Assembly (NCBI GenBank): GCA_003971905.1
Contig: RSEE01000138.1
Span: 62,001 to 126,000, forward strand
DNA length: 64,000 nucleotides
Reading direction: 5' to 3'
Source of the DNA: Moniliella sp. 'wahieum'
Lineage: Eukaryota
Shown: piece by piece, positions 4,547-63,546 of the stretch
Layout of the letters: each line of letters begins with the position of its first letter
Position numbering within the stretch: the first letter of the stretch is position 1
Program-made: the position numbers and the translations under genes
The notes under the pieces: generated by a model
Databases searched by the model: none
What the model saw: only the letters and a program-made list of their open reading frames with translations
Told to the model about the DNA's origin: nothing

Positions 4547-4971
4547 CCGCCTACCCACCTACCCGCTTACCCCCGCTCGGCCTTGGCAAAGCAGCAAGGT
4601 GGAGGCTCGGATGGCGCGAGGGCGAACAAAATAAGATGTCCCACAGCATGCATTGGTGTTGTTGCGCGTGGTGAGATGGCCGGGGGAGGGATGGTGGTGG
4701 TGGTGGTAGTAGTGGTGGGAAAAGGTAGGGCGTGCAGTGGAGTTGATGATCGATGATCGACATTGCATACCCCAGCGCGGCGGAAACGAGTTCCGCTGCA
4801 GTTGGCTTCTGGGGCGTGCGAACGGCTGGGGGATTTGCCCCACACTGGCCTCGCCTAGCCTTTGGCGCTTTTTTGCTGCTTTGCGCCTCGACTCGCCTGC
4901 TCCTGGCCGCCTTTCTGCCCCACCCAAACACCCAAACACCCAGACACCCAGACACCCAGACCGTCTGCGTA

Positions 4972-6227
4972 ATGCTGCTCCCCCGCCTGCTGGACGTTAC
5001 CCCGCGCAGGGCATGGACGCGCGCCCTGTCGCTGTCCCGCACCTTCTCCCCGCCGCTTGCCCCCGCCTCGGCGGCCATCGGGGCCGGCCGCAAGGTGGCG
5101 CTGCTGGGCTCGGGCAACTTTGGTTCGGCGATGGCCAAGGTGATTGGTTCCAACGTCGAGGCGCGCGGGTTTCATCCCGAGGTGCCCATGTACGTGCACG
5201 AAGAACTGGTACGTGTCTCTCTTTCAGCCGGGGGGGATGGACGCATAAAAAGCCAACCCGGTTGAGCCTCAACCCTCAACCCTCAGCGCTAACAAGGTCC
5301 CTTGTCCACTCTTAGGTCGATGGCCAAAAGTTGACAGACGTGATCAATGCGACGCGGGAGAACGTGCGGTACTTGCCAGGGGTACACCTGCCGCGCGCGA
5401 TCCGCGCTACGTCTAGTGCTGAGGAGGCGGTGTGCGATGCGGACCTGTTGGTATTTGTGCTGCCGCACCAGTACGTGCATGCGCTCTGTAGGGCGATCCA
5501 GCCGCATGTCAAGCAGGGTGCGCGTGCCATCTCGCTGATCAAGGGCCTGGATGTGCACGGAAGCGAGCTGCAAGTGTTCCCGCGGTCCATCTCGCGTGCG
5601 CTGGCCGTGGGCGAATGCCTAGCGCTGTCAGGGGCCAACATTGCGTCGGAGATTGGGCGAGGCGCGTATGCCGAGACGACAATTGGCTATCCGGCGCACG
5701 ACCGAGCTACGGGGGAAGTGTTCCAAGCGTTGTTTGCGCATGCTTCGTTCCCTGTGCATCTGGTGCCGGACGTGGAGGGCGTCTCGCTCTGTGGCGCATT
5801 GAAGAACATTGTTGCTCTCGCCGCTGGGTTTAGCGACGGGATGAAAGCGGGGGACAACACCAAGGCGGCGCTGCTGCGGCGCGGGCTGGAGGAGATGGAG
5901 CGGTTTGGGAGCCGGTTCACGCCCACCTGGCGCGCCGAGACGCTGCTGTCGTCAGCGGGGATGGGGGACCTGATCACATCCTGCTACGGCGGACGCAACC
6001 GCAAGGTCGCCGAGGCGTTTGTTGCGTCGCCGGATGGGGTTGGGTTTGCGCACCTGGAGCAGCACTTGCTCGGCGGGCAGAAGCTGCAGGGCGTGCAGAC
6101 GGCCGCTGAGGTCAATGAGTTTCTGACGGCGCGCGCACAGACACACGCCTTCCCGCTCTTTACCGCGGTGCATGAGATTGCCTCCGCCGGGCGGCCGGTG
6201 GAGAGTCTGTTGCGCGACTTTGCGTAG
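4972..6227 (+). CDS. GPD1: NAD-dependent glycerol-3-phosphate dehydrogenase
   Basis: GSGNFGSA, LSGANIASE, CGALKNIVA, DLITSCYGGRNRK and GQKLQG. Intron 5209-5315. The Arg/Ser/Leu-rich N-terminus resembles a mitochondrial presequence. Confidence 0.95.
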
Positions 6228-6549
6228 CATTGCTTTCCCCATCGATCCTGCCTTGCCCCAGCACTTAGGAGCCATAGCCTACCCGACGGACAACCCAACC
6301 CCAAGGCATACCCCGGTGTCACATGTCACGTGCTCCCAGCGCTCGAAAGAGCAGATCGGTGCAACACCCAGGGCGGAATGGCCGCGTGCCTTATTAATGT
6401 CTCCGCTGCACGCAGGCGGCGGCCAAGCGAGCCGCCGCGGCCGATCGACGTCGACGCCCCCACTACCCCCTCGTCACCACCACCACCACCACCACCATCT
6501 CCTCCTGCCCCCCACCTCCTTGTCCCACACACTCTCCCCTGTCGACACC

Positions 6550-59762: not shown

Positions 59763-61052
59763 ATGTCGGGCGGCGCGTACGGATCGCTGTCCGGGCACGG
59801 GTCGGGCGTGCTGGGCGGCGTGCTGGAGCAGCTGCAGGACGCGGCGCTTCGACGCTGCGGCTCATTGGGCGGCAGTACGAGGTGGTGCGGCAGCTGGGCG
59901 AGGGCGGCTTCTCCTTTGTCTATCTCGTGCGCGACAGGGCGAGTGGGCGTGCGTTTGCGCTCAAGAAGATCCGCTGCGCGCTTGGATCCGACACGTTCCG
60001 CGACGCCTTGCGCGAGATTGACGCCACCAAGCGCTTCCGCTCCCCGCGCATCATCCGCCTCTACGACTCGGCCATCGTCCAGGACGGCGAGGGCAAGCTC
60101 ATCTACCTCTCCCTCCCCTTTTACCCTCGCGGAAACGTGCAGGACGCCATCAATGCCCACACTGTCCGCGGCTTGCGCTTCGGCGAAAAGGAGATGCTCA
60201 CCATGTTCCTCGGTGCCTGCCAGGCCGTCCAGACCTTACACCGCTATCGCCTCCCCAATGTGCACGCGCAACGAGGACACACGTCTGTGCCGTCAGGTGC
60301 TTCTGATGCTGCTCTCCTCGCTTCCGCTCCCATAACCCAGCCATTAGGTCGCCTTCCCACGCCAATGAGGAGGAGGATGTTGTGGGTCCCAAGCCGACGG
60401 CTCCAATGGCCATTCGTCCCGATACGAGCGAGACGGATGGGGAGGCAGCTGCCCCGCTCATCTCTGCACAGGAAGAACCAACTACCTATCCGCCTCCTCC
60501 TGAGGGCGCAGATTCGGACGAGGCGGTGCAACCCGGAGCAGGGGCGGGACCGAGGGCGGTGAAATGGTGCCGTATGCGCATCGGGACCTGAAGCCAGGGA
60601 ACATTATGCTGGCTGACGATGGAACTCCCTTAGTGTACGACTTTGGAAGCCCGCTCAAGGCGCGCCGGACCATCTCTTCCCGTCGCCTCGCCGTGGCGGA
60701 GCAAGATCTGGCAGCCGAACATTCTTTCATGCCCTACCGTGCGCCGGAACTGTTTGACGTCAAGACCAACACGACCATCACCGAGGCGGTGGATATCTGG
60801 TCGATGGGGTGTGTCCTGTACGCCATGGCCTACCTCCACTCGCCGTTCGAAACGGATCAGACGGTGGGACAGGGTGGGTCGCTGGCACTGGCCGTGCTCA
60901 ATGGGGACTACAAGATGCCGAGCGAATCAAAGGACCTGTACTCGCCTGCCACCCGTACCATTATTCAACGCTGCCTCACTCTCGACCCAGCTGGACGCCC
61001 TACGATTGAAACTCTGACCCAACTTACCCGCTCCGCCCTTCAGGACCTCTGA
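59763..61052 (+). CDS. ENV7: Ser/Thr kinase, STK16/Env7 (NAK family)
   Basis: LGEGGFSFVYLV, FALKKIRC, YAHRDLKPGNIM, DFGS, AAEHS.MPYRAPELFDVK and VDIWSMGC; acidic insert; frameshifts. Confidence 0.88.
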
Positions 61053-63546
61053 CGTAGTGTTAGGGGGCGCACTGTTGATGGGGTGGTTGACGAATCTGGA
61101 TGGAGTGTTGTTTTTTGTTGCAGCTGGCTAGTATGCGGCCGTCCAGTTGATGGTGATACGCATGATTGGATCTGTTTGCTAACCACCCGTGAACATGCCG
61201 ATTTGTCCGTTGTGGGGGCGCCGAAATTCAATAGCCAATAGCACAACCTGTTGGTTCCTCGCGGCCATGTACTACAGCGGACAGATGTGGCCCTCGGCCC
61301 TCAGGGAAGCTTGAGAGGCGTTGGCCAGTCTCTGGTTTGCCACACCGGAAGACACAGTCAACATGCCCTTAGTTCGGTTGCATCACAGATTCTTACTACT
61401 ACATTTCTTCTCTTTTTGTTGGTTCCCATCTCTGTTCTGGCCGTATTGAGACGTAAGCTCTCCGTCCCAGTGAGCTGTTGGACCCACAACGGAGACCGGT
61501 GGTTTCGCCGCTGCTCCATACTAGTATCTCGCTTTGCCTCAACCTTTAGCCCGATCGACCGAGGACAGAGCTGACCCGCCTATAATAATGTCGGTGGTGC
61601 TGGGGGGCAACGAGTGGATACGGCGGTCGCTAAACCCCGCGGCGGTAAATGTCCCCTTTTCTTTATGCTCCGTCGAGCAACGCCTCCTCTAGCCAACAGT
61701 ATAGTACTCCGTCTCGTCCAAGACTCGTGTGGAAGCGTGAGCGCGCGCGAGCCAGTGTGGGGGTGCCACCTCTGATCCGAACCATCGATCACTCGATCAC
61801 CGTCGATCTTGTGCCCAGCATGTTAAATTCACGTTTGTTGACGCGTGACGTGTCGAACCCACACCATACTCATTCGGCGTTTCCCTTTACGGTCGTTGTC
61901 CGCACACGGATGTGGGATGTGGTGCTGCGCGACCGAAACATGAATCTCGGCGGGGGTGTCGATCAGCATCGCCTGCTCATCCTCCCCCTCTCACTTCGGC
62001 GCGGCCATGCCCCATCACTAGCATCATCGATCATCAGGAAAATTCGGCCCATTGAAGCCGTCGGACAGACACAGCAGTACGTGGGTGCGATTTATGGCAG
62101 CACACAGGCGGGTCTCAGGGGTTCGGGGCGGCTCTTTCGGAGATGCGAGGCAAGGCGGTCATCGGAAGAGGACAGTCGGGGTGGCGCACAGTAAGTACTT
62201 ACTCGGTACTACTACCAGTAGTACTCCTTGTCGCATAATACGCGGTATTCCCAGCTGTCTGTCGCGGTTGCACAGGACCGGATAGGCTGCGCAGCAACCC
62301 ATCCAGGCCGCGTCACCCGCGTTAATTGTGCACTCGTAGCAAGAAAGAGATCTGGTGCGACGCCGCTCTTCTCTCAAAAAGGCCGCCACCATCCGTCGCA
62401 GGCGGTGGAGGGTCGATCGTCGATGTACGCTGGCCGTCGTTGCGCCCCTTGCCCCATGCCCCCTCTCCGGCCAGCCAACCACGGGCACAGTCTGCAGACG
62501 TCGAAGGATCCTCCGGGGTGGGAACAAGTGCGGGGAGAAGGCAGCGGGCAGCGTCGTCGGACGGGCACTCTACTCCCTTCGGGCCTCGGCAGCGGCGTGG
62601 CCACTGATGGCGAATCCACGTCCCGCGGCAGTAGCGAGGCAACTACGTCCACCATTTTCCCCCACCCTCTCGCGACGCCTCTTGCCCATCGGCGCGCGAC
62701 CTTCGCCCTTCGCAGTGCCATCCTCCTCCTCCTCGGCGTCGCCTGCATCTTCATCCGTCTCGTGGGCTTTGGACCGTGATCTTGATTCCTTTACTGGCGC
62801 AATATCCCAACCCGCCGGAGCGTCCTCAACCGTGGTGCTTCCCGACCCCCTTCCTTTTCCTGGGTTCCCTACCCTACTCCCTCCCTCCTCCCCGATCTCC
62901 CTGCTGCCCATCACCAGGCGCCCACTGCTCTCCTGATGGCTGGGCCAGGGCCCCCACCAAGAACCCAAGCCGACCATGGGACCGCACCCTCGTTGGGTCA
63001 AGGGCAGGGCGGCCGTGGCTATGGCCAGCCCACTGCGACAAGCAGTTCCTATCTGCACTCGCTCGTTTCCCATCGTCATCCCTACTTCCCCACTTGGACT
63101 GTTTCCCCCCCTCTCCACCAGCTTCAACCGGCAGGCGCGACTCGGCCGCCCCACCGCTCTTCCTCCCAGTCCCGCATCCGGCCCGTCTTGCCCAGACGAA
63201 CGCGGGTAGGCCGATTGGATTTGACCCGCGCCTCTGCCCTGGTCCGGCAGCAGCGATCCACATCCACTGCGGTTAATACATCCGCCTACCCACGCTCTCC
63301 TGTTCCGCGTGAGTCGGCTAGGCAGGGCGAGTAGGGCTCCCACGATCAACAACCAGGGCGTGCCTAGTATCTGTCATCCTCCCCCCTCTCCCCGCTTTTC
63401 CCTTCCTACGCTTCCCTACCAGCAAGATATCACACCTATACGAGAGAGTGGCAGAGAGAGGTGAATGCATAGTACAGTGACTAGGGTGGAGTCCCGATTA
63501 GTGCGTCTAGGTACCTGGGACGGCAGCGGCCCAGGGCACAGACGAC

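Follow-up and report, generated by a model that had tools for sequence, protein, structure and literature searches.

A flank-templated TNA repeat unit in the non-coding DNA of Moniliella sp. 'wahieum': candidate footprints of a hairpin-type cut-and-paste element

We analysed a 64-kb window of the Moniliella sp. 'wahieum' genome (assembly GCA_003971905.1, contig RSEE01000138.1, positions 62,001 to 126,000 of the forward strand; coordinates below are those of the window, which is 61% G+C). Its non-coding DNA carries many copies of a ten-base motif, TNA-N4-TNA, in which two T-N-A triplets enclose a palindromic tetranucleotide. We find that this motif belongs to a larger unit, a direct repeat whose short inverted spacer mirrors its own flank. 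The pattern makes it fairly probable that the sites are excision footprints of a hairpin-type cut-and-paste element that duplicates a 7-bp target, nnTNAnn, an element that we infer from its scars only.

Architecture of the repeat unit

Counting with overlaps allowed, we found a palindromic 4-bp core in 73 of the 140 TNA-N4-TNA sites of the window (52%). When identical 7-bp tandem copies were collapsed, 63 palindromic and 64 non-palindromic sites remained of 127. By comparison, the palindromic share is 6.6% across all 10-mers of the window and lies between 4.5 and 7.9% in each of the 15 other flank classes of the form XNY...XNY. Markov simulations gave means of 5.4 (order 1), 4.0 (order 3) and 9.3 (order 5) palindromic TNA sites, with a maximum of 16. 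The order-6 simulation gave a mean of 23.4 and a maximum of 34, a mean that is high because a model of this order partly copies the motif itself.

The motif had been noticed in a first-pass annotation made from the sequence alone. All 14 examples listed there occur in the window as written, and the enrichment over simulated means of 4.0 to 9.3 proves stronger, with or without collapsing of tandem copies, than was claimed. The annotation had proposed setting palindromic against non-palindromic cores, with Markov models and other flank pairs as controls; the outcome is an enrichment specific to TNA and not a generic palindrome bias. It had also counted 13 of the 16 possible palindromic cores. 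In fact all 16 are present, at frequencies roughly driven by base composition. The enrichment is restricted to core length 4: palindromes make up 16 of 58 sites with 2-bp cores (25% expected by chance), none of 96 with 6-bp cores and one of 71 with 8-bp cores.

Of the 73 palindromic sites, 56 have the same base N on both sides and just 7 have complementary bases, which makes the TNA copies direct and not inverted repeats. The earlier description thus needed correction both for N, which is mostly the same on the two sides, and for the repeat, which is really at least 5 bp long and not 3 bp. Indeed, the 10-mer is part of a larger unit, TNAxy-y'x'-TNAxy, or pqTNA-q'p'-pqTNA when the opposite strand is read, that is, a direct repeat of 5 bp whose two copies stand 2 nt apart, and these 2 nt are the reverse complement of the two bases next to them. 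At the 56 sites with the same N, 44 of 47 runs have a period-7 repeat of at least 5 bp. Exactly 5 bp is the commonest length (18 runs); the 11 runs of 6 bp and 6 runs of 7 bp are close to chance extension. The two extra repeated bases are one-sided and match the outer half of the palindrome in 59 of the 73 sites and in 52 of the 56 same-N sites, where about 12% would be expected by chance. Perfect 12-mers of the form TNAxy.y'x'.TNAxy number 65 on both strands, against 0.1 expected under an order-2 Markov model.

The same unit emerges when TNA is not assumed. A scan for any 5-bp word followed by the reverse complement of its last two bases and by the word again, W(5)+rc(w4w5)+W, returned 57 hits on one strand and 54 on the other, where about 5.7 per strand were expected. 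T and A occupy positions w1 and w3 in 65 of these 111 hits, and many of the other 46 are the same loci in another register. The spacer is precise: it is of the inverted, P-nucleotide type (P-type) in 65 of the 88 TNAxy repeats that stand 2 nt apart, and in 11 of the 21 that stand 1 nt apart (period 6; 0.6 expected), while P-type spacers of 3 nt and 4 nt were found twice and once, respectively. As one half of the core is local flank and the other half its reverse complement, any palindrome is possible, and all 16 cores occur. The core is templated by the local flank sequence, not by transposon ends. Right- and left-handed period-7 units are about equally common (35 and 30 overall, 18 and 15 among the 33 single-unit loci), and such equal mirror-image products are what a palindromic nnTNAnn target predicts. 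N itself follows the background composition.

Several minor classes accompany the period-7 unit. In one of them, of period 9, 7-bp repeats with TNA at the centre are joined by two inverted bases, pqTNAxy-q'p'-pqTNAxy. The 4-nt spacer is palindromic in 15 of 31 period-9 TNAxy repeats, and these resolve as V-P-V, in which the 7-bp V is pq-TNA-xy and P is the reverse complement of either pq or xy (for example CATGATG-TG-CATGATG, GATGATG-TC-GATGATG and CGTGAAA-CG-CGTGAAA). An unbiased scan of both strands for a 7-mer, the reverse complement of its terminal 2 nt and the 7-mer again gave 24 hits against about 0.9 expected. They collapse to some ten loci, 8 of which have T-N-A at the exact centre of the 7-mer. 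A period-8 class, qTNAxy+y'x'+qTNAxy, is present at about six loci, and a single double palindrome was found in the window, TCA-ACGT-ACGT-TCA at 43674. Junctional variation is present, with classes of period 6, 7, 8 and 9 and the one double palindrome, and period 7 is strongly dominant. Read from these junctions, the duplicated target appears to be a symmetric 7 bp, nnTNAnn, and not 3 bp.

Distribution, decay and lineage specificity

The units form a decay series. Besides the 65 perfect copies, 74 copies break one constraint, against 7.2 expected, and 203 break two, against 92, and the mismatches are spread evenly over all nine constraints of the unit. This even decay looks like that of neutral scars of different ages, laid down over a long period up to recent times. 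The architecture of the unit, its statistics, its symmetry and this decay series are direct observations.

The first-pass annotation had called the copies almost all non-coding, and they are: measured by codon periodicity, only one of the 73 sites falls in strongly periodic DNA, which covers 30% of positions. Coverage by open reading frames (ORFs) was dropped as a proxy for coding DNA, as 78% of this GC-rich window is covered, and codon periodicity and a Pfam gene map were used instead. On the Pfam map, the blocks between Pfam-supported genes hold all of the 73 sites but one, which is inside the Na+/H+ exchanger gene. The exchanger domain is split over two frames (14237-15866) with an overlap at 14826-15271, suggestive of a small intron; the sole in-gene site, TGA-TCGA-TCA at 14823, sits at this frame change.

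The sites are clustered, with 27 in 40.9-44.18 kb, 15 in 32.68-35.18 kb, 9 between the rRNA dimethylase and 3HCDH genes and 7 between the CPDase and trehalose-phosphate synthase (TPS) genes. These clusters occupy promoter-like intergenic blocks, and the affected intergenic regions hold roughly one recognisable scar per 300-400 bp. The sites and arrays are as follows.

4745-6328: three intergenic sites around the glycerol-3-phosphate dehydrogenase gene, starting at 4747, 5283 and 6319; the two-sided unit GATGATCGATGATC lies at 4745-4758.
13997-14022: array of (CC)TGAGGCC, three copies plus TGA, upstream of the Na+/H+ exchanger gene; period 7, from slippage or repeated events.
17356-17388: array TTACCGC-TTACCGG-TTACCGG-TTACGCG-TTACG, in which adjoining units differ in their palindrome (CCGG, then CGCG).
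22462-23946: 9 clustered sites between two divergent genes, those for rRNA adenine dimethylase (minus strand) and 3-hydroxyacyl-CoA dehydrogenase (plus strand), including the period-9 unit GATGATG-CA-GATGATG at 23375-23390.
27001-27010: isolated TGA-GTAC-TCA, in which N differs and the 2-nt extension is missing; a decayed or chance copy.
28162-29946: 7 sites between the CPDase gene (minus strand) and the TPS gene (plus strand), with the arrays (TCAAGCT)x4.9 at 28162-28195 and (GATCATC)x3 at 29224-29244 and the unit AGTCACTAGTCA at 29935-29946.
32999-35029: cluster of 15 sites downstream of the TPS gene, with the single units TCTGAGATCTGA (32999) and ATTGAATATTGA (33010), the period-9 units TGTCATC-GA-TGTCATC (33034-33049) and ACTGACG-CG-ACTGACG (33605-33620), and a period-8 unit at 34600-34613.
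41008-44124: densest cluster, 27 sites in 3.3 kb upstream of the ORF at 44179-45414, with many single 12-mers, among them TCTCAGATCTCA (41008 and 41545), TGATGCATGATG (42864) and CCTCAGGCCTCA (43204); period-9 units at 42187-42202, 42825-42840, 42918-42933 and 44061-44076; a (TCACTAGCT)n array at 43328-43393; and a run of differing palindromes, TGA-ACGT-TGA-GTAC-TGA-CTAG, at 43422-43441.
50440-50451: single unit TGAAATTTGAAA upstream of the POB3/SSRP1 gene.
61787-62201: three sites downstream of the protein kinase gene, at 61839 (TGACGCGTGACG), 62024 (TCATCGATCATC) and 62192, and the period-8 unit GTGATC-GA-GTGATC at 61787-61800 (minus-strand reading).

The genes of the window consist of long housekeeping exons and include Sin3, POB3/SSRP1, exportin-T, an SNF2 helicase, trehalose-phosphate synthase and the Na+/H+ exchanger. 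The 18 kb from 32679 to 50667 are devoid of Pfam-recognisable domains and contain long ORFs at 35184-36419, 44179-45414 and 45418-46221; this stretch could be made of lineage-specific genes or of non-coding DNA. The two 412-aa ORFs that flank the densest cluster are unrelated to each other (E = 0.52). Tandem repeats of period 3-12 are abundant throughout the window (201 Tandem Repeats Finder rows at a score of at least 30) and include arrays inside genes, such as (CACCCG)x16.7 at 6992-7091 in the Sin3 gene and (TGG)x13 at 28034-28072.

For comparison with other fungi, we assembled 80 loci around POB3 homologues (803,864 bp), distant relatives with protein identities of 62-72% at most. The best named relative of the POB3 exon of the window is that of Tilletiaria anomala (74% identity), followed by those of other Exobasidiomycetes, Ustilaginomycetes and Malassezia. 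A Protein Atlas comparison of the same exon pointed weakly, and misleadingly, to Chlorophyta; by the homologue ranking the window belongs beside Tilletiaria in the Ustilaginomycotina, as DNA of a smut-related basidiomycete. Over the 80 loci, the core is palindromic in 165 of 2385 TNA-N4-TNA sites (6.9%). In the 11 closest loci, which are Malassezia-like metagenome contigs at 58-72% identity, the share is about twice as high (20 of 142, 14%), which is probably noise; none of the 11 contains a perfect TNA-type 12-mer, and N is the same on both sides in only one of their palindromic sites. The TNA signature is lineage-specific and is absent from these 804 kb of related fungal loci.

Proposed origin and rival explanations

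Nucleases such as Artemis and those of the Pso2 type cut hairpins open some 2 nt away from the tip, and a transposition cycle built on this step could generate the units. A cut-and-paste element would integrate at a symmetric pq-TNA-xy with a 7-bp stagger, so that both flanks would carry the 7-mer. On excision, the transposase would close both flanks covalently into hairpins whose tips coincide with the edge of the duplicated 7-mer (y|y' and p'|p). A host nuclease would then open each hairpin 2 nt off its tip, giving self-complementary 4-nt tails, xy.y'x' and q'p'.pq, whose added bases would be P nucleotides, the opposite strand being recessed back to TNA. End joining would in most cases attach one of the tails to the strand recessed on the opposite flank, with loss of the second tail. 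The product would be pq-TNA-xy-y'x'-TNA-xy or its mirror image pq-TNA-q'p'-pq-TNA-xy, a net insertion of 7 bp. Rarer joins might give period 9, by keeping all 7 bp of both copies together with two inverted bases, period 8, by losing 1 nt, or period 6, by retaining a single inverted base. Arrays may have been built by slippage and by repeated visits, each scar recreating two TNA targets; candidates are (TGAGGCC)3, (TCAAGCT)4.9, TTA-CCGG-TTA-CCGG-TTA-CGCG-TTA and TGA-ACGT-TGA-GTAC-TGA-CTAG. The existence of the element, the hairpin intermediate, its opening 2 nt off the tip and the end-joining step are thus what we infer from the scars. Reactions of this kind have precedents: as described in the accessible part of PMC5499845, hAT, Transib, RAG1 and MULE reactions form hairpins on the flanks, which enzymes of the host, Artemis among them, open before end joining produces a footprint.

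A resident element was sought in several ways. No pair of TNA-flanked 12-bp inverted termini in the window reached a match of 11/12 or better, and inverted termini at the 1326 pairs of identical nnTNAnn 7-mers with a spacing of 30-12,000 bp matched at 10/12 at best. We dismissed the best pair, 21772/23689 (10/12), as chance, its inverted repeat being a 9-bp core without extension. A search of the window for long direct and inverted repeats yielded only low-complexity tracts and one minisatellite. This minisatellite (38800-39250) is made of 100-bp and 76-bp units with 23-bp sub-repeats, TTAGTCA.TGTACT.CCGAGC, in 8 copies, all on the plus strand, and lies in a non-coding block without TNA-palindrome scars. 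The sub-repeats were considered as element ends and ruled out, as all of them are on one strand. Moreover, Pfam scans of 195 frames across the window, namely 15 long ORFs, 53 frames with 110 or more codons between 31.3 and 50.8 kb and 127 frames with 150 or more codons in the remainder, detected no transposase-like domain. Within the 64 kb, these searches for terminal inverted repeats (TIRs), other repeats and domains revealed neither a cognate element nor a cognate transposase.

These negative searches weigh against the excision model, and so do several other observations. The density of scars is very high, 65 perfect units in 64 kb implying very many imprecise excisions. Of two non-coding blocks some 4.5 kb long, 36.42-40.9 kb (36420-40885) holds no site and 46.2-50.67 kb (46222-50667) a single one. 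TNA is as frequent in these two blocks as in the scar-rich ones; the site-poor blocks may be younger DNA, have a different chromatin state or be transcribed regions. In the 33 reconstructed empty sites, G is over-represented at -2, two bases before N (18/33), whereas C at the mirror position +2 is found in only 8/33, an asymmetry that a fully symmetric target does not predict. Position -2 is on the side whose overhang was kept, and the G excess may come from the selection of one hairpin tail over the other and not from the choice of target. Finally, canonical hAT transposases such as Hermes nick 1 nt into the flank, from which odd and not even palindromes are expected, and we know of no family with a 7-bp duplication centred on TNA.

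The absence of an element or transposase from the window, the high density and local arrays of the sites, and the uniformity of the products, with exactly two inverted bases in 65 of the 88 period-7 TNAxy repeats, would all suit a process independent of transposons. Here a nuclease or a replication or repair pathway acting at TNA would make the 7-bp insertion, by fill-in of a staggered break with 2-nt snap-back synthesis or by template switching, and no element would ever have inserted. We consider this unlikely. A 7-bp duplication on both sides of the junction is what an element would leave if it integrated with a 7-bp stagger and was excised later; fill-in at a single break would also duplicate, but it gives no reason for inverted bases templated by the flank. 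Fold-back with re-alignment would moreover allow A.T, C.G and G.C as well at w1/w3, and it was rejected as only T.A is enriched. Palindromic cores at the other complementary flanks number 6 of 101 for ANT, 25 of 453 for CNG and 32 of 568 for GNC. To our knowledge, no TNA-specific break-repair pathway of the required kind has been described. The hairpin-forming break repair offered in the first-pass annotation survives in another form, as it is essentially the repair half of the mechanism that we favour, with inverted bases of the P-nucleotide type.

An element with an asymmetric duplication could also be imagined. Transib makes 5-bp target duplications, and a Transib-like element duplicating TNANN, with P nucleotides always at the NN end, would account for the dominant class, which shows only a 5-bp repeat (mode 5); Transib and RAG do use flank hairpins, according to the accessible part of PMC5499845. 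The period-9 class, with its 7-bp repeats and TNA exactly central at 8 of about ten loci, speaks against such an element; one-sided P addition would be unusual for a dimeric transposase, and the 35 and 30 mirror products suit a symmetric 7-bp target. We therefore give this reading little credit. Two other hairpin schemes failed on their predictions: P nucleotides from a hairpin at a 3-bp TNA duplication should give TNA-TN', which is not seen, and a hairpin with a TNA loop should complement N, which is the case in only 7 of the 73 sites.

Two further explanations, both raised in the first-pass annotation, have very little probability in our judgement. The annotation had proposed PIF/Harbinger footprints, made of a 3-bp TNA target-site duplication (TSD) and 2 bp from the end of each inverted repeat. 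Harbinger/IS5-like transposases do use 3-bp targets of the TNA kind, and the layout TSD-xy-y'x'-TSD resembles Tc1-type scars; the canonical Harbinger duplication is indeed given as 3 bp in the accessible text of PMC12730594. In 59 of the 73 sites, however, the core bases are those of the local flank, and 16 of 16 cores at composition-like frequencies would need many families with different termini; the 7-bp repeats of period 9 are incompatible with a 3-bp duplication. Footprints of excision thus hold in kind, but the Harbinger TSD with TIR ends does not, as the target appears to be 7 bp long. The other suggestion was a chromatin factor, and it stands for any selected protein-binding, dyad or DNA-shape motif in promoters. 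The sites do concentrate in promoter-like intergenic regions, and TGA and TTAC half-sites resemble those of bZIP proteins. Such a motif is hardly compatible with flanks that are direct and not inverted (same N in 56/73, complementary N in 7/73), with a core of free sequence, with neutral-like decay that is even at all positions, with two other non-coding blocks that are almost empty and with the absence of the signature from the 804 kb of fungal loci.

Should the excision model hold, the non-coding DNA of Moniliella sp. 'wahieum' would be a dense archaeological record of transposon excisions. Every scar would have added 7 bp to promoter DNA, including a 6-bp palindrome (A-xyy'x'-T) and a second stop-type triplet. 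The target (nnTNAnn), the length of the duplication (7 bp) and the cleavage chemistry (an even flank hairpin, opened 2 nt off its tip) would then be readable from sequence alone, even for an element that is no longer, or only rarely, present. The scars would also constitute a natural data set on hairpin-end processing and joining in a basidiomycete, and would offer a testable definition for the long-noted, little-analysed 10-bp repeats of Ustilago maydis. For motif hunters they would hold a caution, an over-represented 'dyad' being more likely a mutational scar than a regulatory site. Going further, we tentatively raise the possibility of a prolific, undescribed (or domesticated) lineage of hairpin-forming transposases in Ustilaginomycotina, with a 7-bp TNA-centred target and tens of thousands of promoter insertions, which would be the source of the Ustilago maydis repeats and a major generator of promoter indels in compact genomes; we regard this as doubtful. 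A bolder alternative would be a transposon-free, TNA-specific pathway of hairpin break repair.

Comparison with known systems

The first-pass annotation knew of no description of the motif, and this needs qualifying. 'Ten-bp repeats' suggested as footprints of transposable elements are reported for Ustilago maydis (Ali et al. 2014, PMC4081816, citing Laurie et al. 2012 and Schirawski et al. 2010), although the accessible text of that article does not define the repeat. It describes them as numerous and intergenic, with 26 between the effector genes of cluster 19A (PMC4081816). Like the motif of the window, they are thus 10 bp long, frequent, located between genes and read as transposable-element footprints, and they come from the same subphylum, Ustilaginomycotina. 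Unlike them, the window does not derive from Ustilago, the best named match of its POB3 being Tilletiaria (Exobasidiomycetes, 74%). That the Ustilago maydis repeats are TNA-pal4-TNA is a lead, not a result, as the two were compared by description only. The literature searched held no other description of the motif or of the Ustilago maydis repeat, and the searchable supplements of PMC4081816 contained no match.

Among transposon families, PIF/Harbinger (PHIS) elements resemble the proposed element in the symmetric T-N-A at the heart of their target, but the duplication in the window is 7 bp and not 3, and the scar bases come from the flank and not from the TIR. For Transib, which duplicates 5 bp, the classes of the window point both ways, the main class showing 5-bp repeats and the period-9 class 7 bp with a central TNA. 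In their structure, the sites resemble the footprints left by flank-hairpin excision (hAT, MULE, Transib and RAG) and V(D)J coding joints. In these, as in the window, each side keeps its copy of the duplicated target, the end of the flank serves as template for inverted P nucleotides, and the spectrum of junctions is small, with a loss of 0-2 nt. The products in the window are far more uniform than typical end-joining scars, and no element was seen there.

The duplication length has partial counterparts. A hAT superfamily member, hAT7, resembles the proposed element in that its superfamily excises through flank hairpins, and differs in that Hermes-type cleavage should yield an odd palindrome. 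The canonical hAT duplication is 8 bp, against 7 bp in the window, and hAT5, hAT6 and hAT7 are exceptions to this norm in the accessible text of PMC12730594. The same text gives 7-bp duplications for two DNA transposons of Basidiomycota, hAT7 of rust fungi and Kyakuja (KDZ) of Laccaria, a likeness in length only; both are described there from Pucciniomycotina and Agaricomycotina and not from Ustilaginomycotina (PMC12730594). Muta1, as presented in the accessible part of PMC5499845, duplicates 8-9 bp, against the 7 bp centred on TNA in the window. Its hairpin, of 43+43 nt, is even (PMC5499845), and the even palindromes of the window are likewise those of a hairpin without offset.

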